From: a virus | DNA: 64,000 bases | IMG/VR virus record: IMGVR_UViG_3300021335_000009 | Location: 20,170 to 84,169 of that record | Strand: one strand, 5' to 3' | In this document: piece after piece, positions 4,428 through 40,344 of the stretch | Numbering within the stretch: the stretch's first letter is position 1 | Layout: each line of letters opens with the position of its first letter | Position numbers and translations under genes: made by a program | The notes under the pieces: generated by a model | What the model was told of the DNA's origin: nothing | What the model saw: the letters and a program-made list of their open reading frames with translations, nothing else | Databases searched by the model: none

Positions 4428-5391
4428 TCTAAGCCTAGAGATAGTTTCTGAAATTTTGCAAGGAGTTACTGTACTAAGTAGCTCCTTTGGTTCTTTATAC
4501 CTAAAACACTTGTCCCAATTCGACCAAAGAGAGTTAATATCTAAATCCAAGCTATTTAAAAAAGAAGCTTTGTCAAAAGGATTATCTACCGAAAAAGACG
4601 CTTTACAAGATTTGATAAAACACGAAATTTGGTCAGAAAAAAACGAGGAAAAAATTAAAAATCTAAATTTAGAAATAGAAAATTTAAAAAAAATAAATTC
4701 TCAGTTAATTTTGCCATCCAAAAAAAAGGAGATGCAAAAACAATTAAAAGATAAGCAAAACGCTTTGATTTTAATTAGCGCCGAAAAAGAAGACCTACTT
4801 GGACTTACAGTAGAAAAATATTCAAACAACAAAATACAAAAAAATATTGTAAGCAATATGCTTTTTTACGATAAGCAGTTTACAAAAAGTGTTTTTGAAG
4901 ATTTGTATGTTGATGAAATGTCCAAAGAAGTAGAGGTTTATAAAATTCAAAAAAGTTTTTTCGAAAAATTTAATGACGATTCTATATCTAAGGCTGCTTT
5001 AAGTGATAATTTTTCAGTTTATCTTCCTTTTTGTGAGGATGTTTTAGGTGTTTTTGGCAAGCCCTTGTCGCAATTAACCACTTATCAATTAAAGTTAATA
5101 TCTTTTGGTAGGTATTTTTTAAATATTTTTAAAAACTCTACTAAAGAAATTCCTGAAAACGTAGCAAAAGACCCAGAGCTTTTAATAAGTTTTTACGAAA
5201 ATCAAAAAGAAGGGTCAAAAAGACATACTTCAAAATCAGATGAAGGAGGATCTACTTATTTTGGGGCAACAAAAGAAGATTTAAAGTCAATTAAAGCTGA
5301 TGATGAAAATGTTGTTGTTTTGTCAGAAGAAATAAAAAAACAAGGAGGATCTTTAAATATGCAACAAATGATGGATTTACATAAAATATAA
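4417..5391 (+). CDS. Tail assembly chaperone-like protein 2
   Basis: 324 aa immediately before the tape measure gene. Confidence 0.5.
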   Translation: MDNDLSLEIVSEILQGVTVLSSSFGSLYLKHLSQFDQRELISKSKLFKKEALSKGLSTEKDALQDLIKHEIWSEKNEEKIKNLNLEIENLKKINSQLILPSKKKEMQKQLKDKQNALILISAEKEDLLGLTVEKYSNNKIQKNIVSNMLFYDKQFTKSVFEDLYVDEMSKEVEVYKIQKSFFEKFNDDSISKAALSDNFSVYLPFCEDVLGVFGKPLSQLTTYQLKLISFGRYFLNIFKNSTKEIPENVAKDPELLISFYENQKEGSKRHTSKSDEGGSTYFGATKEDLKSIKADDENVVVLSEEIKKQGGSLNMQQMMDLHKI

Positions 5392-5405: not shown

Positions 5406-8400
5406 ATGTCGGTTCAAGTAGGAGTAAGTTTAAGTCCAGTAGATACAAGAAAAGTTGACGCTGCTTTAGTAAGAATTCAGTCTGCGGCTAAAGGTGTTAG
5501 TTTTGGAGGCGGAGCTAAGTCTATTGAAAAGCTGTCAAGACCTCTTGGCAAAATCACTGGGCAAGCCACAGAGTTTCAAAAATCACTAGAAGCTTCTAAT
5601 GCCCGTGTTATAGCTTTTGGTGCTTCTGTCGCTGTCATAAATAAACTTTCAGAAGCTTTTGCGGCTCTTGTTCAAAATACAGTTAAAGTTGAAGCTACTT
5701 TTGCAAAAATAAATATTATTCTTGGAGGAACTCAACAGCAATTAGAAGAATTTGGAAATGGTATTTTTTCCGTAGCAAAAAAAACAGCAACTTCTTTTGA
5801 CGAGGTTGCTGAAGGGGCTTTAGAATTAGCTCGTCAAGGTTTAGGTGTTGAAGAATCTTTATCAAGGGTTGAGACTGCTTTAAAACTTGTTCGCGTATCT
5901 GGTATAGATTCTAAGCAGGCTGTTGAAGGTTTAACGGCTGCTGTTAAAGGCTTTTCTGACAGTGGAATAACAGTGGCTCAAATTGCAGATAAACTGGCAG
6001 AGGTTGATACTAAATTTGCTGTTTCTACTGAAGATTTAATTAATGGTCTAGAAAGAGCCTCTGCTTCCGCTCGTGTTGCTGGGGTTTCTTTTGATGAACT
6101 TCTTGCTGCTGTAACCACTGTTCAAGAAAGAACTCAACGTGGCGGTGCTGTTATCGGTAATGCTTTTAAAACTATTTTTGCTAGATTAGGAAGAGTAGAT
6201 ACCTTGGCCGTATTAGAAGATTTAGGGATTAATGTTTTAGACGTACAAGGAAATGTTAGAGCGGCGGTCCCTTTATTTGAAGAACTTGCTGCAAAACTAG
6301 AAGGAATTGGTCTAAAAAGCGTAGAAGCAGGCAAAATTATACAAGAGGTTGCTGGTGTTAGACAGAGAGATATTTTAATTAGTTTAATTGAAGATTTAAA
6401 TTCGGGCCAAAGTCAATTTGCTGCGGCTTTAAACGTGTCTGCTACTGCTGCTGGAGGTTTAGATAAAAAAAATGAATCTTTAAATAAAACTCTAGAAGCT
6501 TTAATTAACAATTTAACAGTCGGATCTCAAAAACTAGCTTCTGTTATTGGGGATTTAGGATTTACAGAATCAGCAAAAGACATTTTAAAAGCAATTTCTT
6601 CTGTAGTAAATGGAATTACTGATTTACTAAAAGGGGATTCAGTAGGGGCTAAATTTGCACAGGGAATTGTTAAGGGGATTGGTAGTATTTTAACTGGACC
6701 TGGAATAGCTTTAATTGGAGCAATATTTGTAAAACTTTTTGTTGATTTAACTAGGTTCGGAGCAAATTCACTAAAAAATATTTTAGGAGTTAATAAAGCA
6801 GCTCAAGAACAAAAAGCTCTTCAATCGTCTGTTCTTCAAACTCTTTTGCAAAACGAAAACATCCAAAAAGAAATTTTAAATCTTGAAGGAAATAAAGTAG
6901 CGCAAGAACAGCTTCTTTTAAGAATCTACAATGATCAAATTAAAGCCTTAGAAAAAGTTAAAAAAGCTGCGGCGACTGTAACCCCTGGTCTTTTTGCTGC
7001 TGGCCTTAAAGGAGGCGAAAAAGGTGTTACAAAAAGAGCTGCCGATGGATACATAGCTTCAGAAAAACGCGATGTGGCCAATGGTGTTGGCGGAGCTCCG
7101 TCAAGTGCAAAAGTAGTATCTATTCCTAATTTTGCTTTCGGAGGTGGTAAAAAAGGAACAATGATAGCTAATACTAGCGAGTATTATGTTCCGAATTATG
7201 CTGGAGGTGGAGACGCTATATTTAATCAAGACATGGTTAAAACAATGGGTCTTCCTGCTGGAGCTAAAAAAATAAATGCGGCTGGAGGATTTATTCCTAA
7301 TTTTAGTATTTATTCTGATTTGTTAAAAAGAGCGCAAGACAGAAAAAGAGGCATAGACTCTAGTATCGCATCTAACCTTAGAAAAAACAAAATAACACAA
7401 AAAGAAGCTGAAGAATTAACCAAAATAGCTCAAGATGCTAGATCTGGCGCTGCCCCATCGATAGCTGTACAGCAAAAACAAAGAGAGAAGAAAAAAGAAG
7501 AAAAAGAAGCTTCTACTCTTTTTGATCGTAGAACTTTAATGATAATTCCTAGAAAAAGTAAAAAATTACAGGATGAGTATGGAATTCATAAAGGGCGACG
7601 AGTTGGATTTAAAGTAGCTGGATACGACAGCTATGAACAAGCTAAAGGCAAGCTTTTAAATGACGAGGAAATAGATAGAAAATTAGAAAATTTTGCATTA
7701 AATCTTGCTAACTCCGAATCCGCCAAAATCGGAAGCCCAATAAAACCAGAAAGATTAAGAGAAATTCCAAACAAAGGAGCTTTATCAGCCTTATCGGGAG
7801 TTATATTTGAAGCTTCTTTGGCGTCCATTATAAAATCAAAAGATTTTGTAACAAACAATGCTAGATTTGATTTCGTAGGAAAAGATAAAGCGTCTAAGTT
7901 AAGAAAATCTTTGTTTTCTACAATACCAAATACAGCAACTCATATAGATGCGAAAATTAGACCATCTAAAGACAACAATGAAAGCTTTGCTAGTAAGGTT
8001 TTAAGTCTAAACGCTTCAAAAGGATACATTCCTAATTTTGCGTCTAATCCATTAGAAGATGCTATAGCCAGAGAAAAAGCCGCTGGACTTCCAATTAATC
8101 AAATCAGGATTAATCAAAGCGGAAAACTTCGAAATTCTCAAAACCCAATGGGTCTTGCTGTAACTAATACAAGAGATGAGCCAACTGGAAGAATTCCAAA
8201 TTTTGCACAAATGTCTCTGGAAGAGGCTAAAAAAAACATGTCTCCAAAACAAATTTTATCTGGCTTTGCAGGCACACAAGCAAAGTTGGACTTTGCTGAC
8301 GAATTATCAAAAAGCGCTGAAAAAGCATCTTCATCTTTAGACACTTCAGTTACAAAAATTCTTGCTTTTCAGCTTGCGATGTCAGGCTTAACTAGCACGA

Positions 8401-10499
8401 TAACAGATCAAGACGGAAAATTTGCAACTATTGGCAAAGAAATGTCTGGATTAGTAAATACCCTTCTTACTTTGCAGCTATTAGGAGCTGCTCCAAAAAT
8501 ACCTAAATTTGGAGGAAAAGAAGGTGGGAGCGTTTTAACAAAAACAAAAGAATTTGGCAAAAAAATTTTTAACAATAAGCCTATTTTGCAAGCGGGGGTT
8601 TCTTTTAAAACTTTAGCTTCAAATTTTGCAAAATTTGTTCCTGTTTTAGGGGGGCTTGTATTAGCCGCACAGGGCTTAAGTTCTGTTTTTAAAGTTTTTA
8701 CTGGAAAAGGTATTTTAGAAGCTTTTGGATCTGAAGTTAAAAAAGCTTCTGATAATATAGAAGAATTTTCTAAAACAATAAGTTCTCAAAACGAAAAACA
8801 ATTAAAATCAACAATAGAAGAAAAGCAAAATCTTGTAAACTCTTTAATAAAAAGGCAAACAAAACTTCAAAACGAAGCCAATTTGCAAGAAAAACAAACA
8901 ACAAAACAAAGAGTGTCATCTTTTGAGCAAAGAAAAGAAAGAAGTCGAAATCTTGAGCAAAAACAAATAGCCGAAGAATTAAAAAAAGCTACAGAAGAAC
9001 TAGAAATAGTTAGACAAAGATTTAAAGATATAAATTTAAGCTCCAAAACAGAAGGAGAACTTAAGAGTATAATTCAAGAAAGAAAAAATCTTGTTGAAGC
9101 TTTAAAACAACAACAACAAAATCTTGTTCAAATTATATCAATTCCAAAAACAGGCCCAACAAAAGGGAAAAGAAAAGGAGTTAGCGTTCCTTTATCAGAA
9201 AGCCAGATTACCGCTAGCGCACAATTAAAAGAGGTTGAAGTAAAATTAAAAAAAGCTGAACAATCTTTATCGCTTGCAGAAAAAACCCAAGAAAAACAAT
9301 CTAATGATTTAAAGTTGGCTTTAGGAGTTTCAAAAAGACTTCAAAAAGGGGCTGTTCCAAAAGGAAAGCTTAGTGTAGAAGGTGTTGGAGCTTCAGGAGC
9401 AACAGGAGATAGAAAAAAGTTATTAACAGAAGAATTAAACCTAGCCAAAGCCGCAGGAACAATTGACAAAATTAATACAGAAAACAGAATAGCTCAGTTA
9501 AAATTTGAAATAGAAAAAAGAAAAGAAGGTTTCAAAATTACACAAGATTTTGTGAAAGCATTAGCAGAAGCGGATAATCTTAGCTTAGAAGCTCAAGAAA
9601 TTATTGATGCTAGAGTGGCTGCTGGAGATAACCTACTTGCAATACAAGAAGAGCTTAACGAAAAAAATATTGAATTAACTGATAAAGTTAAAGAAGTTTT
9701 AGATTTAGGAATAGGACAACAAAAACAATTAGATTTAAGACTCGCCGCAAAACAAGAAGAGGTAAACTTACAAAAGGAAATAAACGACCTAGGAAGAGAC
9801 ACTTCTTTTACAGGCGGATTAACAAAAGGATTTAAAGACCTTGAAAATAAAATAAAATTTTTCAAAAAAGATCTTGGGGAAGATATTCCTTTGCAGTTTG
9901 CTGACGGACTAGGAAACGCTTTAACTCAAGCAATTACTCAAGCTGAAACTCTTGGAGATGCATTGTCTCAAGCAGGAAGAGACTTTTTGGGTTACATGGT
10001 AGAAGCTTTTGCCCAACAAGCTGCTATGCAGGCCGTTTCAGGAATAAAAAGTTTAATCCCTGGTTTTTCAAATGGGGGGTCAGTAAGAGGGTATGCAACT
10101 GGAGGATTTATAAATTCATCAAACAGCTCAATAGCTCCTAGCGACACTGTTCCAGCAATGCTGACTCCTGGAGAATTTGTAATCAAAAAATCTTCTGTTG
10201 ATAAATACGGAGCTTCTTTTTTATCAAGCTTAAACGAAGGAACTTTACCAATGAAAGGATTTAATAACGGAGGGTCTGTTTCAATGATCTCTCCAGAAGC
10301 AGGGGCTCCAACTAGAGAATCTATAACAAATCATTCTGAATTTACTTTTAATATAGAAAAGGGCAGCGCAAAATCTGAACAAGGATCTATCGAAAACGAG
10401 CAAGATTTAGCGTTTTCTAAAAAAATAAAACAAGCAGTAACAACAATTGTTCAAGAAGAATCTAGAAGAGGTGGATCTTTAAATTACTTATACAGATAA
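5406..10499 (+). CDS. Tail tape measure protein
   Basis: 1697 aa. TP901-type core (LARQGL, IGNAFKTIFARL), long coiled coils, hydrophobic segments, C-terminal DTVPAMLTPGEFVIKK motif. Confidence 0.9.
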   Translation: MSVQVGVSLSPVDTRKVDAALVRIQSAAKGVSFGGGAKSIEKLSRPLGKITGQATEFQKSLEASNARVIAFGASVAVINKLSEAFAALVQNTVKVEATFAKINIILGGTQQQLEEFGNGIFSVAKKTATSFDEVAEGALELARQGLGVEESLSRVETALKLVRVSGIDSKQAVEGLTAAVKGFSDSGITVAQIADKLAEVDTKFAVSTEDLINGLERASASARVAGVSFDELLAAVTTVQERTQRGGAVIGNAFKTIFARLGRVDTLAVLEDLGINVLDVQGNVRAAVPLFEELAAKLEGIGLKSVEAGKIIQEVAGVRQRDILISLIEDLNSGQSQFAAALNVSATAAGGLDKKNESLNKTLEALINNLTVGSQKLASVIGDLGFTESAKDILKAISSVVNGITDLLKGDSVGAKFAQGIVKGIGSILTGPGIALIGAIFVKLFVDLTRFGANSLKNILGVNKAAQEQKALQSSVLQTLLQNENIQKEILNLEGNKVAQEQLLLRIYNDQIKALEKVKKAAATVTPGLFAAGLKGGEKGVTKRAADGYIASEKRDVANGVGGAPSSAKVVSIPNFAFGGGKKGTMIANTSEYYVPNYAGGGDAIFNQDMVKTMGLPAGAKKINAAGGFIPNFSIYSDLLKRAQDRKRGIDSSIASNLRKNKITQKEAEELTKIAQDARSGAAPSIAVQQKQREKKKEEKEASTLFDRRTLMIIPRKSKKLQDEYGIHKGRRVGFKVAGYDSYEQAKGKLLNDEEIDRKLENFALNLANSESAKIGSPIKPERLREIPNKGALSALSGVIFEASLASIIKSKDFVTNNARFDFVGKDKASKLRKSLFSTIPNTATHIDAKIRPSKDNNESFASKVLSLNASKGYIPNFASNPLEDAIAREKAAGLPINQIRINQSGKLRNSQNPMGLAVTNTRDEPTGRIPNFAQMSLEEAKKNMSPKQILSGFAGTQAKLDFADELSKSAEKASSSLDTSVTKILAFQLAMSGLTSTITDQDGKFATIGKEMSGLVNTLLTLQLLGAAPKIPKFGGKEGGSVLTKTKEFGKKIFNNKPILQAGVSFKTLASNFAKFVPVLGGLVLAAQGLSSVFKVFTGKGILEAFGSEVKKASDNIEEFSKTISSQNEKQLKSTIEEKQNLVNSLIKRQTKLQNEANLQEKQTTKQRVSSFEQRKERSRNLEQKQIAEELKKATEELEIVRQRFKDINLSSKTEGELKSIIQERKNLVEALKQQQQNLVQIISIPKTGPTKGKRKGVSVPLSESQITASAQLKEVEVKLKKAEQSLSLAEKTQEKQSNDLKLALGVSKRLQKGAVPKGKLSVEGVGASGATGDRKKLLTEELNLAKAAGTIDKINTENRIAQLKFEIEKRKEGFKITQDFVKALAEADNLSLEAQEIIDARVAAGDNLLAIQEELNEKNIELTDKVKEVLDLGIGQQKQLDLRLAAKQEEVNLQKEINDLGRDTSFTGGLTKGFKDLENKIKFFKKDLGEDIPLQFADGLGNALTQAITQAETLGDALSQAGRDFLGYMVEAFAQQAAMQAVSGIKSLIPGFSNGGSVRGYATGGFINSSNSSIAPSDTVPAMLTPGEFVIKKSSVDKYGASFLSSLNEGTLPMKGFNNGGSVSMISPEAGAPTRESITNHSEFTFNIEKGSAKSEQGSIENEQDLAFSKKIKQAVTTIVQEESRRGGSLNYLYR

Positions 10500-11542
10500 T
10501 GAGTTTAAATTTTGCAGTTTACGACAGAGATCAAAACGTAAGTGGAGATGTCCAACCTTTTTCTTTTGTACCAGAGTATGAATCTTCTATTATTTTTAAT
10601 TATAAGAATCCATATTCTTATGCATCGGACAATCACTATATTAAAAATTGTAAAAATTTAAACAATACCAGTTTATCTTTTGATTTAAAATTCACAAACA
10701 AGACTGAAGAAGAAGCTAAATCATTTTTGCACCTATTAGAAAATACTCATTTAGAGGCTAATGGGATTTTAAACTTCAATCAACTCACTAATCAAAATGT
10801 AGAGTTGGCATTTCCAACAGGAAATATTTACAAAAACTTATCTGGATTTTTGATTAATGATTACTCATTCCAGTATAATAAAAACTTATTAGACATAGAT
10901 TTAAGTTTACAAAAAAATGGATACTCTTATTTGTTTGATTGGGGCGGGTCTTCTTATTTAAATACTGACAACTTTAACACAGGATGGTCTACAGGAGTTT
11001 CTTATGAAAAGTTTGATGTCATATATTACCCAGAGTACGTAACGGGCTCTAACCCTAATTTTTATCCAAAGACGAACAGAATAGAAAAGTTTTACTATTG
11101 CAATTCTGACCACTTATCGTCAGAAGACAATAGCCCAACTGGAATAAATGGAAATGTTTGGAGCAGATCTTTTTTTTACGATATAGATGACGGCATTTCT
11201 ATTTCTACAGATAGGTCTAATTCTGTTTATGATGATAATTATTCATTTTCTCAATTTAACAAAAAAAACGCAAACGAGGGTTTAATAAAAGACCTGAAAA
11301 TTTCTTTAAAAAATAGATCAGATAAAGAAACAAGATCCATAATTCATTTTATGGAAAAACATGAAAATTCTTTACCTTTTGAGTTAAAACTTACGCAACT
11401 TTACGTAAAGAAAAAGTTTTTTATCGCAAAACAAATGAAACATACATTTGTTTATAAAGACTGTAATACTATCGAAATAGTGTTAGATGAAATTTTAAAA
11501 TTTAAAGAAGACCAACTTTTAGATTCTTTTTATGTCAGTTAA
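10499..11542 (+). CDS. Minor tail/distal tail protein (putative)
   Basis: Coupled to the tape measure stop (TAATG). Two similar halves (LKFTNKTEEEAKSFLHLLE / ISLKNRSDKETRSIIHFME). Confidence 0.55.
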   Translation: MSLNFAVYDRDQNVSGDVQPFSFVPEYESSIIFNYKNPYSYASDNHYIKNCKNLNNTSLSFDLKFTNKTEEEAKSFLHLLENTHLEANGILNFNQLTNQNVELAFPTGNIYKNLSGFLINDYSFQYNKNLLDIDLSLQKNGYSYLFDWGGSSYLNTDNFNTGWSTGVSYEKFDVIYYPEYVTGSNPNFYPKTNRIEKFYYCNSDHLSSEDNSPTGINGNVWSRSFFYDIDDGISISTDRSNSVYDDNYSFSQFNKKNANEGLIKDLKISLKNRSDKETRSIIHFMEKHENSLPFELKLTQLYVKKKFFIAKQMKHTFVYKDCNTIEIVLDEILKFKEDQLLDSFYVS

Positions 11543-14927: not shown

Positions 14928-16358
14928 ATGAGCGACAAAAAAATTTCTCAACTTACAGAGCTAACTTCGGTAGATGGAGTAAATGACTTTATTCCTATCG
15001 TAGACTCAAGTTCGAGCGAGACAAAAAAAGTCTCTCCGTCTAACTTGCCAGTATCGACAGAACAACAGACGGCGCTTGACTTAAAAGCGAATGATGCAGA
15101 TTTAACAGCGCACACTAACAACACAAGCAACCCGCACAGCGTCACAGCGGCGCAAGTGGGTCTTAGCAATGTGGACAACACAAGCGACACTAACAAGCCT
15201 GTATCAACAATACAGCAGACGGCGCTTGACTTAAAGTCTGACGTTACAGAACTAAATGACGAGATCGATGCTCGTAAAGCTCAATCTTTTCCTTATACTG
15301 TAGATTTTCAATCTGGAGTTAGTCAAAAAAGAGATTTGAGCAGTATTACATCTTCAGATGGGTATTATTACAATTCAAATCTTACTAGCATTTATGTGGG
15401 AAGTAATGTGACTTCGATTGGGAGTAATGCTTTTAGAGGCTGCTCAAGCCTTACCAGTATAACTATTCCTGATGGTGTGACTTCGATTGGGAGTTATGCT
15501 TTTGGATACTGCTCAAGTCTTACCAGTATAACTATTCCTGATAGTGTGACTTCGATTGGGGATTATGCTTTTGGATACTGCTCAAGTCTTACCAGTATAA
15601 CTATTCCTGATAGTGTGACTTCGATTGGGGATTATGCTTTTAGGAACTGCTCTAGCCTTACCAGTATAACTATTCCTGATAGTGTGACTTCGATTGGGAG
15701 TGGTGCTTTTTATTCCTGCTCAAGCCTTACCAGTATAACTATTCCTGATAGTGTGACTTCGATTGGGATTTATGCTTTTGGCGGCTGCTCAAGCCTTACC
15801 AGTATAAATATTCCTGATAGTGTGACTTCGATTGGGAGTGGTGCTTTTAGCATCTGCCCAAACCTTACCAGTATAAATATTCCTGATAGTGTGACTTCGA
15901 TTGGGGGTTATACTTTTTACGGCTGCTCAAGCCTTACCAGTATAAATATTCCTGATAGTGTGACTTCGATTGGGAGTTCTGCTTTTTTCTCCTGCTCAAG
16001 CCTTACCAGTATAAATATTCCTGATGGTGTGACTTCGATTGGGAATTATACTTTTTACGGCTGCTCAAGCCTTACCAGTATAAATATTCCTGATAGTGTG
16101 ACTTCGATTGGGAGTTCTGCTTTTTTCTCCTGCTCAAGCCTTACCAGTATAAATATTCCTGATGGTGTGACTTCGATTGGGAATGGTGCTTTTAGCAGCT
16201 GCTCAAGTCTTGCTACAATTAACTGTTTAGCTACAACTGCTCCTAGTTTAGGTTCTAACGTTTTTCAAAGCGTGTCAGCAACTCAAATACACGTTCCCGC
16301 AGGAGCCACTGGATACGGAACTACTTATGGAGGATTGACAGTTGTTGCAGATTTGTAG
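14928..16358 (+). CDS. Fibre/adhesin with BspA-type leucine-rich repeats (LRR_5)
   Basis: N-terminus is paralogous to the 12675 fibre, followed by about 12 x 23-aa LTSIxIPDSVTSIGxxAFxxCS repeats. Confidence 0.85.
   Translation: MSDKKISQLTELTSVDGVNDFIPIVDSSSSETKKVSPSNLPVSTEQQTALDLKANDADLTAHTNNTSNPHSVTAAQVGLSNVDNTSDTNKPVSTIQQTALDLKSDVTELNDEIDARKAQSFPYTVDFQSGVSQKRDLSSITSSDGYYYNSNLTSIYVGSNVTSIGSNAFRGCSSLTSITIPDGVTSIGSYAFGYCSSLTSITIPDSVTSIGDYAFGYCSSLTSITIPDSVTSIGDYAFRNCSSLTSITIPDSVTSIGSGAFYSCSSLTSITIPDSVTSIGIYAFGGCSSLTSINIPDSVTSIGSGAFSICPNLTSINIPDSVTSIGGYTFYGCSSLTSINIPDSVTSIGSSAFFSCSSLTSINIPDGVTSIGNYTFYGCSSLTSINIPDSVTSIGSSAFFSCSSLTSINIPDGVTSIGNGAFSSCSSLATINCLATTAPSLGSNVFQSVSATQIHVPAGATGYGTTYGGLTVVADL
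15408..16210 (+). repeat. 69-bp tandem repeat, 12 copies, with hypervariable codons
   Basis: Invariant GTGACTTCGATTGGG every 69 bp from 15408 to 16167. Confidence 0.95.
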
Positions 16359-35077: not shown

Positions 35078-35443
35078 ATGACATCTGACAAGGTTAAAAA
35101 AATAACCCCGCATAGAAGAAAATTAAACATTTTAAGCAGGCTTCTTGACATTCCAGAAAAACAAAAAAGGTTTTTTTATGCTAGGGAAATGAAATTTTTA
35201 AAAATTTTAGAAGAAAGATATTCTTTAGATTTTTTAGAAATAATTACTTTTCCAAAAAAATATGACAGTTTGGCCATTTTAGTTTCAAAAGAGCTAAAAC
35301 AAACTATGAATAAAAAATGGAATAATTTTAATTTTAAAATTGACACTTCAAAATACCAAAAGTATAATATAGGAAAAAAATCAGGAGAAGATTTTGTACC
35401 TACAAAAAAACAATTAAAAAGAACAAAAGATTTATTTAAATGA
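35078..35443 (+). CDS. Hypothetical protein
   Basis: 121 aa. TTGACA-N16-TAACAT (35043-35070) lies 7 nt upstream. Confidence 0.7.
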   Translation: MTSDKVKKITPHRRKLNILSRLLDIPEKQKRFFYAREMKFLKILEERYSLDFLEIITFPKKYDSLAILVSKELKQTMNKKWNNFNFKIDTSKYQKYNIGKKSGEDFVPTKKQLKRTKDLFK

Positions 35444-36552
35444 GCGACAAAGATTCACAACTACTAGAAAAATTCTTAAAAGAAACAAAAGGCCAACATT
35501 ATAATTTTGAAGATACTATTGATTATAAAGTCTCAAGCGGTTCTTTGCAGCTCGATTTAGTTTTAGATGGTGGACTTGGGCCAGGACTACATAGATTTGT
35601 AGGAATGAATGAAGGAGGAAAAACTTCATCAGCTTTAGAGTTTATGAAAAACATGCTTAACAGTGTTCCAAAATCAAAAGGATTTTATATCAAAGCAGAA
35701 GGAAGGCTTTCTCCAGAAATGCAAAAAAGATCTGGAGTAAAATTCGTTTTTAGCGCTAAAGATTGGGTAGAAGGAACATGTTTTGTATTTGAAAGTAATA
35801 TTTACGAAGTTGTTGTTGACGCTATACACCAACTTGTAGAACAAAACGAGGAAAAAAATAAATATTGTTTTTTGCTTGATTCTGTAGATGGCTTGATTTC
35901 TAAACAAGATATTGAAAAGTCTTTTTACGACTCTAATAAAGTTGCTGGGGGAGCAGTAATCGCAGCCAACTTTATGAAAAGAATGTCTATTAAGCTTGCT
36001 AAAAGAGGACACATGGCTTTTTTTATTAGTCAAGTAAGGGCTGATATTACTTTAGATCCATACTCAAAAGCTCCTGTTCGACAAACTACGGCTACAGGAG
36101 GAAATGCATTGCTCCATTTTGCTAATTACATTATGGAATTTGAACCTAGATTTAAAACAGATTTAATTGTTCAAGATCCAACTAAAAAAACTGTAGATTT
36201 AAAAACGAATCCTATTATTGGTCATTGGGCAAAAGTAACAATTAAAAAGTCTCCAAACGAAAAAACAAACAATAAAATTCTTTATCCTATTAAGTATGGA
36301 AGAGTAGGTGGAAAATCTATTTGGGTAGAAAAAGAATTAATTGATTTAATGTACATGTGGGAATTTATTAGGAAAAAGGGAGCGTGGATCATGATAGAAG
36401 AAGAATTAAAAGAATTAGTCAAAGAAGTTGCTCCAGATCTTCCCAACAGTATTCAAGGCGAAAATAACCTTTTTAAAACGATAGAAGGTAACGAAAAGCT
36501 TTCTAAATTTTTAGTTGATTATTTTAAGTCAAACATACACGAATCTGTGTAA
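35440..36552 (+). CDS. RecA/UvsX-like recombinase
   Basis: SSGSLQLDLVL, Walker A GMNEGGKTS, LLDSV, ISQVR, TGGNAL motifs. Confidence 0.85.
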   Translation: MSDKDSQLLEKFLKETKGQHYNFEDTIDYKVSSGSLQLDLVLDGGLGPGLHRFVGMNEGGKTSSALEFMKNMLNSVPKSKGFYIKAEGRLSPEMQKRSGVKFVFSAKDWVEGTCFVFESNIYEVVVDAIHQLVEQNEEKNKYCFLLDSVDGLISKQDIEKSFYDSNKVAGGAVIAANFMKRMSIKLAKRGHMAFFISQVRADITLDPYSKAPVRQTTATGGNALLHFANYIMEFEPRFKTDLIVQDPTKKTVDLKTNPIIGHWAKVTIKKSPNEKTNNKILYPIKYGRVGGKSIWVEKELIDLMYMWEFIRKKGAWIMIEEELKELVKEVAPDLPNSIQGENNLFKTIEGNEKLSKFLVDYFKSNIHESV

Positions 36553-36565
36553 TAGTATATAATAT

Positions 36566-37130
36566 GGCCTTGACCTCTTGCATATCTATAGTTTTGATTT
36601 TTTAGATCTTTATGTAACGTCAAGGTTCTTCTGTTCTTTCTCATCTCTGGCCCTTGATCCTCCTATCCAGTCCTTAGCGATTGTGAAGAGCCTTGGGCAT
36701 TCTTAATGCTGCGCGGCAGATCCTCCAAGCCTTATGGCTTTGGATATGGCTTTTTCCTCTTTCGCCCGATAAGTAAAGAGGCTTCTTTAAAAACCGACTA
36801 ACAAACCAGAAACAGAACTGGGACAGCTTTAAGTGCTTGGAAACAAATGTAACGAGGTTTTCATTGTTCGGTTCCTCAGCTTTTTTAGACTTCCTGCAAA
36901 TGTCTTTTGAGCGTTGCAGTGCCCGTAGATTCGCAACCTATGGGTTTAGTAGGCCCCCTGCGCCTCTGGCTTCCAAATTGGTTGCTAATTCCTTCCCAAG
37001 TGCTGACGAGTGCGTTAGGGTTGGTGCGTAATTCAGGGGGTGTTTTCTTTATCAAACTTCCCACGCCACTCAATGAAGCGCAATTTGGGAGGTGGTTCTT
37101 TTTACAAATAGACCCCAGAACTTGTAACAA
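36566..37130 (+). ncRNA. Large structured non-coding RNA, class unassigned (GOLLD/ROOL-like context)
   Basis: GC-rich region without credible CDS. At least 10 helices whose G-U pairs all favour the + strand. GTGTAA motif at 36547-36552. Confidence 0.7.
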
Positions 37131-37194
37131 AATAAGACTTAATATATTATATAAATAACTGAGTATCGAGCGTTTACTTATAATATGTTATTCA

Positions 37195-37270
37195 CTAGCC
37201 TTCCTCTAATAGCGATAAGACTCCATGCTTGATCATGGTGAATGTGGGTATGCGAATTCCACAGGCTAGC
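37195..37270 (+). tRNA. tRNA-like element 1 (6-nt anticodon loop CTTGAT, 9-nt T loop)
   Basis: Acceptor CTAGCCT/AGGCTAG, anticodon stem CCATG/CATGG, T stem GTGGG/TCCAC. No encoded CCA. Confidence 0.6.
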
Positions 37271-37275
37271 CCTTT

Positions 37276-37347
37276 AGTTCCATAGTTTAATCGGCAAAAA
37301 TCCCGTAGTCACATTCGGAGTCCCCAGTTCAAATCTGGGTGGAACTT
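37276..37347 (+). tRNA. tRNA-like element 2 (6-nt anticodon loop GTCACA)
   Basis: Acceptor AGTTCCA/TGGAACT, canonical T arm CCCAG-TTCAAAT-CTGGG, D arm TAGTTTAATCGG, anticodon stem CCGTA/TTCGG. Confidence 0.7.
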
Positions 37348-37367
37348 ACACAATAACACCTCTCACG

Positions 37368-37429
37368 CCTTTGGTCTGCATTGCGGACGCTTAATGGACT
37401 GAGCTTTTCTCGGTCGGGCGCACCAGAGG
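37368..37429 (+). ncRNA. Small multi-helix RNA element
   Basis: CCTTTGGT/ACCAGAGG closing stem around a GACTGAG/CTCGGTC hairpin. A GTCTGC/GCGGAC hairpin overlaps the 5' arm by 2 nt. Confidence 0.55.
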
Positions 37430-37455
37430 GGCTACTTTTAAAATAAAATAAAAAA

Positions 37456-37866
37456 ATGAAATTTAAATCCATCACATCTGGAAAAGAAAAATATTTAAAA
37501 AATCCATTTAGATTCAAGATAAAATGGAACGGCAAATGCAGAAGCAAATTTCAGTCTGAAGTGAGAAAGTATTTGTATAATTATTGGAAATACGATAGCG
37601 TTTACGAAGAATTTCCCATAATAGGAACCAAGCTTTCTTTGGATTTTTACAATCACACAAAAAAAATAGCAATAGAAGTTCAAGGAGCTCAACATTTTAA
37701 GTTTGTAAAACACTTTCACAAAACAAAAGCTAATTTTTTAAGACAAATTCGCAGAGATGATAAAAAAATGGAATTTTGCGAATTAAACGACATCAAACTT
37801 ATAGAAATTTATCCAGACGATGAATTATCTGAAGATTTTTTTATAAAAATGCTGCATTCGGTGTAA
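37456..37866 (+). CDS. Vsr/DUF559-like endonuclease
   Basis: YEEF...LDFY...IAIEVQGAQH...RDDKK motif. Confidence 0.75.
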   Translation: MKFKSITSGKEKYLKNPFRFKIKWNGKCRSKFQSEVRKYLYNYWKYDSVYEEFPIIGTKLSLDFYNHTKKIAIEVQGAQHFKFVKHFHKTKANFLRQIRRDDKKMEFCELNDIKLIEIYPDDELSEDFFIKMLHSV

Positions 37867-38157: not shown

Positions 38158-40344
38158 ATGATATATAGTCTTGAAATTGAAAAACAAGTTTTAGCAGCTT
38201 TCATACAAAAGCCCAAGCTTTTAGTAAATTTTAATCATTTGATTAGCGAGGCCGATTTTCACAATGGCTCTCTTTTACATAAGACTCTTTTTGCTGTTTT
38301 AAAAAAAGCCTGCCAACAAGAAGAGTCTATTGACGAAGTTGTATTGGTTCAAAGAGTTAAAGAGCTTGGAATAAAATTCGAAGAAGATCTGTCTCTTATT
38401 GATTATGTAAAATCATTGTCGATGAGAAAGATTCATTCCGAAGAAAAAATCAAATCTGTTGTCCAAGAATTAAAAAAGTATAGCGTAAGGCGAGAAATAT
38501 ACAAAACAGCAAAAGACATAGCTGATTCGATGAAAACTATGTCTCCAAATGAATCGTATTTAGGCATAATTGAATCTGCGGATAAAATTTACAACGATAA
38601 AGTAAATTTATTTGAAGTGGGCAACGATGTTCCAGAAAACATTTACGACTCAATGGAGGAATTCATTGAAGAAAGAGGAAATAACCCTATTGAAGAATTT
38701 GGCATGATGGGGCCACATAAAAAAGTTAATGATATTTATGGCTCTCTTTTAAGACCAGGGAATATTACGGTATTTGTTGCTCGCTCAGGAGTCGGCAAAA
38801 TGAACCCTTTATACACAAAGGTATTAACTCCTGACGGTTTTACTGAAATGAGAAATATTTCAGTAGGGTCTGAGGTTGTTTGTCCTAATGGAAAAATTTC
38901 AAAAGTTTTAAAAACATTTGACCATAAGAATAAAGATGTCTATAGAGTGACTTTTGAAGATGGAAGATATAGTGATTGTGGATTAGAGCACTTATGGAAA
39001 GTCTCTTACAAAAACAAAAGTTTTAAGTCTAACTGGGTAGTTTCAGATACGCAACAAATTAAAAATGTATTAAACGAAGGCCATGAAGTTTACATTCCTT
39101 TAGTTCCTGAAATCAAAAATTATGAAGAAAAACTAAAAAAATTAAAACTCTTTATTAAAGAAAGGACGGAATCTTCTCAAGAAGATCCTAACAGTTTAAA
39201 TTACCTAACAAAAACAAAAACATTAGCAGAAAAAGTTCAAAAATTTGCATGGGCTTTGGGGGCAAAAGCAAAAATTTCAAGTTTAAAAATTTCTGACGAT
39301 GACATATTCAAAGTTAAAATTGAAATCCCTGATTTTAGAAACGAAAACTCTACAAAACTTCAAATTGTAGCCGTTCAAAAACTAGAAAAAAAAGAAGACT
39401 GCCGATGCATACAAATTGACGAAAAAGAGCATTTATACATTATTGATGAATTTATTGTTACGCATAACACTCAATTATGCATGGATTATTCCACTAAGGT
39501 TTCCGCAAAATATGATGTACCTGTATTGCATTTTGATAATGGAGAAATGAGCAAAGATGAACTGGTAATTCGTCAATGTGCAGCTCTTTCTGGAGTTCCT
39601 CCCCACTTATTAGAAAGTGGCAAATGGAGGCAGGCTGGAGACGAAACCGTTCAAAAAGTAAGAAGCGTTTGGAAAAAAATAAAAAATTTAAAATTTTACT
39701 ATTATAATGTAGGAGGAATGGAAGTAGATTCCATGATTAACACATTAAAAAGGTTTTATTATTCTAAAGTGGGCAGAGGAAACAAAATGATATTTTCTTT
39801 TGATTATATTAAGACCTCTTCAGATAGCGGATTTGGCAATAAAAATGAATGGCAGCTTGTAGGAGAAATGGTAGACAAGTTTAAAAAAACCATCCAAAAA
39901 GAAATTTTGGAAGACGGAGCTCCAGTAATACCAATGATTACATCTGTGCAGTCCAATAGAAGCGGAATAACAACAAACAGAAATAGCTCTAACATTATTG
40001 ACGACGAATCTGTGGTTTCTCTTTCTGACAGGATCACTCAGTTTTGCTCTCACATGTTTATTTTAAGACAAAAAACTAATGACGAAATGGCAGAAGAGGG
40101 TAGTCAATTTGGGACGCACAAATTAATTAATGTAAAATCTAGACACTTGGGTAAAGATGTTGCTGGTGCGGTAGAGCCTGTTCAAGTAGGAGACGATCTT
40201 AGAAAAAACTTCATTAATTTATCTTTTAGAAACTTTAACATAACAGAATGTGGGGATTTAAGAGATATTGTTTATTTTAGAAATTCTTCTGAAGATTTAT
40301 CTACAGATTCTGTCGATAATGTTCCTTCGTTTGATGATTTATGA
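38158..40344 (+). CDS. dnaB: Replicative DNA helicase with intein
   Basis: DnaB N-terminal domain, Walker A ARSGVGK/T split by an intein, GEMS, FDYI and SVQSNR motifs. Confidence 0.9.
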   Translation: MIYSLEIEKQVLAAFIQKPKLLVNFNHLISEADFHNGSLLHKTLFAVLKKACQQEESIDEVVLVQRVKELGIKFEEDLSLIDYVKSLSMRKIHSEEKIKSVVQELKKYSVRREIYKTAKDIADSMKTMSPNESYLGIIESADKIYNDKVNLFEVGNDVPENIYDSMEEFIEERGNNPIEEFGMMGPHKKVNDIYGSLLRPGNITVFVARSGVGKMNPLYTKVLTPDGFTEMRNISVGSEVVCPNGKISKVLKTFDHKNKDVYRVTFEDGRYSDCGLEHLWKVSYKNKSFKSNWVVSDTQQIKNVLNEGHEVYIPLVPEIKNYEEKLKKLKLFIKERTESSQEDPNSLNYLTKTKTLAEKVQKFAWALGAKAKISSLKISDDDIFKVKIEIPDFRNENSTKLQIVAVQKLEKKEDCRCIQIDEKEHLYIIDEFIVTHNTQLCMDYSTKVSAKYDVPVLHFDNGEMSKDELVIRQCAALSGVPPHLLESGKWRQAGDETVQKVRSVWKKIKNLKFYYYNVGGMEVDSMINTLKRFYYSKVGRGNKMIFSFDYIKTSSDSGFGNKNEWQLVGEMVDKFKKTIQKEILEDGAPVIPMITSVQSNRSGITTNRNSSNIIDDESVVSLSDRITQFCSHMFILRQKTNDEMAEEGSQFGTHKLINVKSRHLGKDVAGAVEPVQVGDDLRKNFINLSFRNFNITECGDLRDIVYFRNSSEDLSTDSVDNVPSFDDL
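38800..39468 (+). mobile_element. Class 3 intein (223 aa, Met1, reduced endonuclease region) in the DnaB P-loop
   Basis: MNPLYTKVLTPDG...EHLW...CRCIQI...IVTHN followed by T. W/C/T triplet present. Confidence 0.85.

Follow-up and report, generated by a model that had tools for sequence, protein, structure and literature searches.

AbiF is a widespread abortive-infection toxin whose antidote is a small RNA, and it has been proposed as the HEPN ancestor of Cas13. The antidote, abiF RNA (Rfam family RF03085; RCd22 of C. difficile, AbiFr of a Prevotellaceae bacterium), is a type III antitoxin RNA of AbiF, an Abi_2/HEPN protein. Here, we analyzed a 64,000-nucleotide (nt) stretch of viral DNA (hereafter the window), which is part of an 84-kilobase (kb) IMG/VR virus record (IMGVR_UViG_3300021335_000009, or G000) estimated to be 62% complete. 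In a 903-nt gap between a recA-like and an endonuclease-like open reading frame (ORF), at positions 36553-37455, the window carries a hairpin that resembles abiF RNA, together with tRNA-like elements and other small hairpins. It has the 6-base-pair (bp) outer stem, bulged A and 3-bp inner stem of RF03085, as well as the 11-nt loop (CnCUCAAyGAw) and the 6-nt internal loop on the 3′ side. Unlike RCd22 and AbiFr, however, it has no adjoining Abi_2 gene and lies in a phage setting, among tRNA-like genes and small hairpins.

Two other systems are close to this locus. Pseudo-ToxI of phage PhiTE is reportedly a phage-encoded mimic of the ToxI antitoxin RNA through which abortive infection by ToxN is blocked. 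The logic that we propose below is similar, in that a host RNase toxin would be neutralized by the phage's own version of a type III antitoxin RNA; by contrast, ToxN is not a HEPN AbiF, pseudo-ToxI is a repeat array rather than a single hairpin, and the action in the window is proposed only. The tRNA region of phage T4 encodes the stable RNAs C and D, which are small tRNA-like RNAs beside tRNAs, and T4-type phages contain promoter-early stem-loop (PeSL) cassettes that mediate modular shuffling. Like the pieces described here, PeSLs are units of promoter and hairpin that act as break points of mosaic exchange, but they flank small ORFs, whereas our cassettes are non-coding.

According to three sources, RNAs with the abiF motif bind and neutralize AbiF, an Abi_2/HEPN RNase, in cis and in trans, and their function requires the stems but not the sequence of the stems (PMC12373285, PMC13064643, PMC12737573). 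RCd22 contains two motifs in one RNA (PMC12373285); the window contains one. In the literature searched, an abiF RNA in a lytic phage was recorded once, in the cyanophage S-CREM1, where abiF (10531-10567), manA (10215-10429) and wcaG (9745-9842) lie within 1 kb and no mechanism is given (PMC9964418). S-CREM1 resembles the present case as a lytic phage of marine or estuarine waters in which a toxin-less abiF RNA lies in a run of structured RNAs; however, it belongs to another phage lineage, and its neighboring RNAs are known Rfam motifs (PMC9964418), whereas the neighbors in the gap match no family. The literature searched, which did not extend to Zilberzwige-Tal et al. (2025) or to the supplement of the 2017 motif paper, contained no statement of a toxin-less pattern or of a link to tRNAs, and abiF does not occur in the main text of the 2017 motif paper.

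Pieces of the recA/endonuclease gap in other phages

An earlier note on this DNA had described a large GC-rich stretch between recA and an endonuclease gene, without a credible coding sequence and rich in plus-strand RNA hairpins. Our analysis bore out this description, and the stretch also adjoins tRNA-like genes. The G+C content (GC) of the gap is 0.427, reaching 0.445-0.505 in 200-nt windows, as compared with 0.311 in the two flanking genes and 0.331 in the window, and all 17 arms of the quoted helices were found where the note had placed them. The longest stop-to-stop frames in the gap comprise 100, 89 and 87 amino acids (aa). A coding relic was considered and rejected: none of five tested gap frames matched PHROGs at E ≤ 0.1, and tblastx of the gap against 83 relatives (described below) matched only the region of module D, in four loci.

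The gap is likely to be a mosaic island, made up of some ten small plus-strand RNA cassettes that are inherited separately, and not one giant RNA. In the window, the order is S1, module A, module D, S4, S5, S6, abiF-like hairpin, promoter-like stretch, tRNA-like 1, tRNA-like 2 and S10 (Table 1). Judged by their sequences, cassettes occur in other phages alone, reordered and amid different genomic surroundings. Three unrelated viral contigs were retrieved with a degenerate S6 word, and a fourth such contig with an exact 21-mer (L086-L089; L-numbers denote retrieved viral, metagenome or bacterial loci). Among viral contigs, neither a 22-mer from S6 nor a 23-mer taken from the tRNA-like 2 T-arm had a match. 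L087, which is 6.2 kb long, differs in gene context; there, TTGACA-17-TATAAG is followed by module A, abiF, the second hairpin of module D, S6, tRNA-Met and further hairpins, and then by a stretch almost the same as 37119-37190, tRNA-like 1, other sequence, S10, a promoter-like stretch and a gene. In L086, S6 and module A are about 150 nt apart and in reversed order. In L088 and L089, which have a higher GC and another context, S6 is solitary; it lies directly behind TGTATAAT and ahead of a U-run, beyond which comes module C, a hairpin absent from the window.

Contigs from sequencing runs (X-numbers) contain further arrangements. Contigs of two seawater DNA runs join 36704 to 36893 (X2) and 36778 to 36893 (X3), and contigs of these runs also carry real tRNA 3′ ends before 37129-37131 and a better abiF motif behind 37055. 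Contigs of two RNA libraries (X19 and X22) contain module homologues and cover 36631-36837, 36893-37213 and 37358-37431, with none on the recA or endonuclease flanks; missing cover is in itself no finding. In the X22 contig, 37214-37357 is replaced by 147 other letters, as in L087. Since tRNA-like 2 is thus cleanly replaced by other sequence in L087, it is also a cassette. Summed depth was at most 94 over the modules versus 15 on the flanks, values that are not copy numbers. We did not use the RNA-library cover as evidence of transcription, because the runs were found through words of this same sequence and RNA libraries may contain DNA; the small shares of such words in runs X5-X24 carry no information on habitat.

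The junction itself was examined in relatives. A recA protein query retrieved 43 viral and 40 metagenome loci with 66-87% identity (at least five contigs are counted in both sets), and 72 of these relatives contain both the recA end and the endonuclease ORF. In 45 of the 72, recA overlaps the endonuclease ORF (gap of -7 to -17); therefore, the ancestral state is the absence of a gap, and the junction is an insertion hot spot. A gap of 61-236 nt with GC-rich modules is present in 15 relatives, and a gap of 415-805 nt that includes a protein gene in the other 12. The short gaps consist of recurring modules, A, B (that is, abiF RNA), C and D, in varied combinations and located exactly between the two genes; in L008 and L053, the abiF hairpin is the sole module. 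Blastn of the gap against the 43 viral loci yielded a single 74-nt match, in module D; together with the tblastx result, this leaves module D (36716-36789) as the one part of the 903 nt in common with the 83 relatives. The island thus probably entered where recA meets a free-standing endonuclease gene, a site prone to recombination. Among 50,697 phage records, neither blastn at a distant setting with 36540-37450 nor tblastn with recA gave a match, and these records therefore offer no cultured relative and no lead to the host.

As a separate observation, the protein inserts at the junction (L029-L033, L041, L042, L061, L068, L071 and L073, gap 728-805 nt; L057, gap 415 nt) mostly encode an ORF of about 237 aa; that of L057 has a shorter ORF.

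abiF-type hairpins in the window, in viruses and in bacteria

The abiF-like hairpin of the window is a diverged member of the abiF family whose score falls short, and we do not file it as passing the family cut-off. It is 90% identical over 49 nt to the copy in L087, shares the leader CUUUAUCAA with the copies of relatives and keeps all nine Rfam pairs, one of them via a C-G to U-A double change. One pair is a U-G wobble that would be a mismatch if read on the other strand. Three copies from other loci score above the RF03085 cut-off of 37 bits (45.1 in L087, 42.2 in L001 and 39.2 in L037), and L003 scores 33.8 bits. In the alignment of seven copies from this phage group, pairing holds in 96.8% of cells, and four of the nine pairs change on both sides. 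We then assembled 72 distinct viral copies (68 distinct viral 37-mers plus four of the phage group) in a fixed ungapped register; 83.3% of cells pair and all nine pairs change on both sides. The score of either alignment was reached in 0 of 500 shuffles. Across the 72 copies the stems vary, while the defining RF03085 bases of the loop and internal loop are retained.

No toxin gene accompanies the hairpin. G000 as a whole has a single abiF copy, and an Abi_2 gene was not found in it; nor was Abi_2 found in 89 loci comprising the recA relatives, the S6 loci and two cut-outs of G000. Directly downstream of the hairpin, Abi_2 is absent and the promoter-like stretch and tRNA-like genes stand instead. 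Whole-record searches, which covered L087, L041 and L009, found no abiF motif in the two long relatives that lack RNA modules.

To place the window copy, we scanned viral and bacterial sequences with a 19-letter abiF core, which gave at least 118 viral and at least 120 bacterial loci; the counts that follow apply to the matches listed. Abi_2 was screened in the retrieved flanks only, with a hidden Markov model (HMM) built from eight Pfam-confirmed sequences. In bacteria, eight downstream ORFs of about 300 aa were picked, and Pfam assigns all eight to Abi_2; they start 0-35 nt past the pattern. Two other picked ORFs, a CLC channel and a peptidase, are not Abi_2. Of 87 further bacterial instances with a downstream flank of 1 kb or more, 48 show an Abi_2-like domain in its first 700 nt, and 72 of the 120 loci have one somewhere. 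Among viral loci, none of the 98 with at least 1 kb downstream has Abi_2 there (the other 20 have too little flank), and a single locus of the 118 has Abi_2 anywhere. By contrast, 62 of the 118 viral matches lie within 500 nt of a tRNA, versus 23.9 expected from random placement in the same loci, and all 139 nearby tRNAs are on the strand of the motif. The missing toxin, the covariation and the tRNA linkage together indicate that toxin-less abiF hairpins are a selected, tRNA-linked feature of phage genomes. The window is one rather worn example of these hairpins.

Three bacterial loci or groups deserve separate mention. In L117 (167-1065, plus strand; bacterial metagenome-assembled genome 'bacterium isolate CSMAG_2929'), the 25-nt abiF core has two differences from the L087 copy, and a 293-aa Abi_2 ORF with AT-rich codon usage starts 1 nt past the pattern; L117 is a possible model of the host-side partner. 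In Collinsella-type loci (within L090-L169), one identical motif variant, …GCUGGAAAGCCUCUCAACGAUGCGCAACUCCAGC…, recurs in many of the first 80 bacterial loci, and among the 120 matches listed it has 55 instances with 1 kb or more of downstream sequence, 36 of which show an Abi_2-like domain in the first 700 nt. The first long downstream ORF in L093 is a CLC channel.

A proposed role for the island and its alternatives

If the gap is a mosaic of cassettes, it may form at least two expression units. The first would run from S1 through A, D, S4, S5 and S6 to the abiF-like hairpin and end in U-runs; the second would have its own conserved promoter-like stretch, followed by tRNA-like 1, tRNA-like 2 and S10. 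Transcription would start from the promoter-like stretches or read through out of recA, and the host RNases P, Z and E may release the cassettes as short stable RNAs from tRNA-type precursors. The abiF-type hairpin would bind host AbiF as a surrogate antitoxin. Bound AbiF would then stay silenced as the host antitoxin RNA decays or host transcription stops, and abortive infection would not be triggered. This decoy step, drawn by analogy, is a tentative proposal that we find possible but somewhat doubtful. As a working guess, A, D, S5, S6, S10 and both tRNA-like elements may be further decoys or processing signals. Cassette exchange may be aided by double-strand-break repair around the endonuclease gene, as well as by shared U-rich or promoter-like borders.

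More broadly, phage tRNA and small-RNA islands might be RNA-based anti-defense arsenals, in which abiF hairpins co-transcribed with tRNAs neutralize AbiF and the other cassettes are traded decoys; A, S6, S10, module C and the tRNA-like elements with 6-nt loops would then be decoys for RNA-binding or tRNA-cleaving defense effectors. In this general form, we consider the idea unlikely. If it is routine for phages to harbor the antidote within tRNA arrays and without its toxin, they would possess an RNA-only counter-defense parallel to pseudo-ToxI, and phage tRNA islands would gain a role. The island itself varies known things, namely phage tRNA and non-coding RNA clusters and the abiF motif; the toxin-less, tRNA-linked pattern, with its proposed decoy role, is the part worth pursuing. 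The remaining cassettes are candidate new small RNA motifs of marine phages.

Several observations weigh against this account. The window hairpin scores below the RF03085 gathering cut-off and has an altered loop base, the window copy of module A breaks some consensus pairs, and the anticodon loop of tRNA-like 2 has 6 nt (GUCACA); because of these three defects, the island may be partly decayed. The stems of S6 and S10 are invariant, without any compensatory change, and their invariance, as a property of the sequences, fits recent transfer as well as structure. Promoter calls reach 9 of 12 only and are at chance (three found versus 3.2 expected), and a simple scan found no terminator-like sites at 36300-37700 versus 1.3 expected. 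The run data are contigs, and RNA libraries may contain DNA. On the toxin side, the Abi_2 screen of viral loci rests on a small home-made HMM and retrieved flanks, the core counts cover only the matches listed, and a toxin gene could sit in the missing part of G000, which is 62% complete. Finally, carriage of AbiF by the host is an assumption.

The earlier note had read the gap as one giant structured RNA of about 550-870 nt, GOLLD/ROOL-like or of a new class, expressed from a late promoter and held together by a pseudoknot and long-range helices. It is favored by the many local hairpins on a single strand, and like GOLLD, ROOL and HEARO the gap has a phage or tRNA neighborhood and a GC far above its flanks; the minimum-free-energy fold shows some long-range pairs, and an RNA-library contig runs contiguously through S5, S6 and abiF. 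Nevertheless, this reading is very improbable and largely refuted. An Rfam scan of the 64 kb gave no gathering-level matches and no large-RNA family; at E ≤ 10, the region 36300-37700 matched tRNA (43.1 bits), abiF (31.4 bits) and five small families at chance level, but none of the GOLLD, ROOL, HEARO, RNase P, tmRNA (transfer-messenger RNA) or intron models. The fold of the 583-nt core (36553-37135) is no more stable than dinucleotide shuffles (z of -0.32 on the plus and +0.41 on the minus strand). Locally, three of ten segments beat shuffles (36563-36630, z -3.77; 36890-36950, z -3.70; 37350-37440, z -3.03), two are weaker (36950-37050, z -1.77; 37050-37106, z -1.60), and the other five have no excess stability. 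None of the 72 relatives has the array, no collinear unit of several hundred nt is conserved among the homologues, as membership of GOLLD, ROOL or HEARO would entail, and there are thus no collinear homologues to carry long-range covariation. The conserved internal promoter-like stretch also divides the gap. As for the late-type promoter, the GTGTAA cited for it is the final Val codon and stop of recA, and the word is not enriched (29 observed in the window versus 23.8 expected; 17 of 100 shuffles reach 29); it is therefore no promoter signal. The 11-nt pairing of 36970-36980 with 37081-37091 does exist (91% complementary), although, by a rough count, chance alone could produce 11 bp with one G-U in a sequence of 900 nt. 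We rejected its interpretation as a conserved pseudoknot or switch: its 5′ arm lies in S6 and the other arm forms the 3′ side of the abiF-like stem, so that the arms belong to two independent cassettes, which are in reverse order in L087 and unlinked in L086 and L088, where S6 has a different loop at the pairing site and no abiF nearby. Reordered and solitary pieces such as these are incompatible, at the level of sequence, with a single co-evolving RNA and fit one-by-one cassette exchange. A false lead is thereby removed, the gap being no new giant RNA class.

Other alternatives accept separate pieces but not a function as decoys. The cassettes might be recombination debris, brought by endonuclease-stimulated or illegitimate recombination and now decaying without function here. 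The window copies are indeed weaker (abiF at 31.4 bits versus 45.1 in L087, broken pairs in module A, a tRNA-like 2 with a 6-nt anticodon loop and no CCA, a non-folding S4), and most relatives lack any insert. We nevertheless think debris improbable, given that the abiF-like copy retains its nine pairs with a double change among them, that the promoter-like stretch, tRNA-like 1 and S10 are by estimate ~94-96% identical to L087 with tRNA-like 2 cleanly replaced, and that near-identical and variant copies occur in several seawater runs. A stack of terminator or insulator and mRNA-stabilizing hairpins between recA and the endonuclease and replication genes, with an incidental likeness to abiF, would explain why several cassettes end in U-rich runs and why the modules of relatives sit exactly between two genes. 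A mere terminator, however, would not need the RF03085 loop bases kept in 72 viral copies, the scan called no canonical terminator, and the cassettes of L087 and L088 have their own promoter-like stretches, all of which leave this explanation with little probability. Least of these in our estimation is the antitoxin half of a phage-borne AbiF system for superinfection exclusion, as in a C. difficile prophage, with its toxin in the unassembled 38%: we hold it to be highly improbable. Such systems exist (PMC12373285), and G000 is incomplete, yet in the eight Pfam-confirmed bacterial cases the toxin ORF adjoins the motif, the listed viral matches are almost devoid of Abi_2, and what comes after the window motif is a promoter-like stretch with tRNA-like genes behind it. 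The mosaic of separately inherited cassettes remains our preferred reading.

Features of the gap and further observations

Table 1. Coordinates of features in and around the gap (window positions).
Feature	Position	Strand	Score	Description
recA-like ORF	35440-36552		Pfam RecA, E 7e-10	TAA stop at 36550-36552
GTGTAA	36547-36552	+		last codon (Val) and stop of the recA-like gene; relatives also end ...GTGTAA
S1	36566-36627	+	z -3.77	long hairpin GGCCTTGAC/GTCAAGGTT with AT-rich interior
Module A	36633-36707	+		hairpin cassette; 80% identity to L087 over 75 nt
Module D	36716-36789	+		hairpin CCAAGCC/GGCTTTGG, then hairpin CCTCTTT/AAAGAGG; U-rich tail
S4	36790-36892	+	z +1.10	A-rich, poorly folding spacer; missing from some relatives
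S5	36894-36945	+	z -3.70	two adjoining hairpins, CTGCAA/TTGCAG and GCCCGTAG/CTATGGGT
S6	36952-37049	+		branched hairpin of ~90 nt, closed by CCCCCTG/CAGGGGG; U-rich tail; homologues in L086-L089
abiF-type hairpin	37057-37093	+	31.4 bits (cut-off 37)	RF03085-like; followed by a U-run
Promoter-like stretch	37119-37190	+		AT-rich, TTGTAA-17-TATTAT, overlaps TATAAATA; nearly identical in L087
tRNA-like 1	37195-37269	+		7-bp acceptor-like stem CTAGCCT/AGGCTAG, hairpin with 6-nt loop, T-arm-like hairpin
tRNA-like 2	37276-37347	+	RF00005, 43.1 bits (cut-off 29)	cloverleaf; model positions 1-71, complete
S10	37359-37431	+	z -3.03	three-way junction CCTCTC/GAGGGG, then CUACUUUU
Endonuclease-like ORF	37456-37866			matches PHROG families named HNH or homing endonuclease

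The cassettes differ in how far their structures can be followed. S1 was found only in this phage and in near-identical contigs (X2 and X3). The alignment of module A (seven sequences) has 15 consensus pairs, three of them with a compensatory change, and in L087 this module sits after the TTGACA-17-TATAAG stretch. Module D is 86% identical over 74 nt to L002 and was aligned in four sequences, and its second hairpin occurs alone in L087. In variant contigs, both arms of the second hairpin of S5 are altered, in a manner that is compensatory by eye. S6 has 22 consensus pairs, of which 20 are invariant and none shows a compensatory change. S10 ends 25 nt upstream of the endonuclease ATG; it is nearly invariant in L087, where another gene comes next, and is therefore no leader of the endonuclease gene. 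U-rich runs are located at 36782-36789, 37041-37049, 37097-37103 and 37432-37439. Their reading as tails of hairpins involves stems with loops longer than the terminator scan permits.

Within the promoter-like stretch, 37122-37150 is a sigma-70-like site with 9 of 12 matches. The overlapping word TATAAATA was considered as a T4-like late promoter and was not used: it has 21 matches versus 7.25 expected, and six of the 21 lie within a 69-bp tandem repeat. In that repeat (window 15803-16155), the six copies of TATAAATA are spaced at a period of 69 bp, and they inflate the word count.

Of the two tRNA-like elements, tRNA-like 1 received no RF00005 or ARAGORN call; in L087, the pairing of its middle hairpin is kept through one G-C to A-U swap. 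The 5′ half of tRNA-like 2 (acceptor and D region) is similar to the phage's own tRNA-Thr. Its anticodon stem contains a U-U mismatch, the element fails the test for a 7-nt loop with a readable anticodon, and ARAGORN reports it as 'tRNA-???' with a 2-nt anticodon. It also lacks an encoded CCA, which is present in four of the five called real tRNA genes of the phage. Outside the window, five tRNAs of G000 form a regular array (Trp, Phe, Ala, Thr and Glu; G000:C1:2047-2437, minus strand). The array is preceded by a hairpin with a T-run, has no abiF motif, and includes an Ala tRNA with ACCA directly after the called gene.

A direct repeat of 32 nt with 72% identity connects the last 50 nt of recA (36501-36532) with the interior of S1 (36592-36623); it may be an insertion scar, or a chance match in AT-rich sequence.

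Module C consists of the hairpin CACGGCCCCUUGG...CCAAGGGUGUCCGUG, whose interior varies freely; a U-run follows the hairpin, and there is no Rfam match. It is present in L001, L002, L007, L034, L037, L047, L048, L088 and L089. By eye, one pair is compensatory in L047 (C-G to U-A), and L034 contains a single mismatch.

The contigs retrieved with S6 also contain other structured elements. A 68-nt element of L088 (1859-1926, minus strand), the same in L089, matches the tmRNA model with 52.3 bits (cut-off 47; model positions 1-374). Located between two phage genes, it looks like a bare tRNA-like domain of tmRNA, with acceptor, T-arm and CCACCA end. L086 has two sub-threshold type II hammerhead matches on the minus strand, at 4654-4721 (33.1 bits) and 5870-5934 (29.6 bits; cut-off 37). 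Downstream of the gap, the window encodes a DnaB-like ORF of 728 aa (38158-40344), with an N-terminal domain at residues 3-104 and a C-terminal helicase domain at residues 436-604, separated by ~330 unexplained residues.

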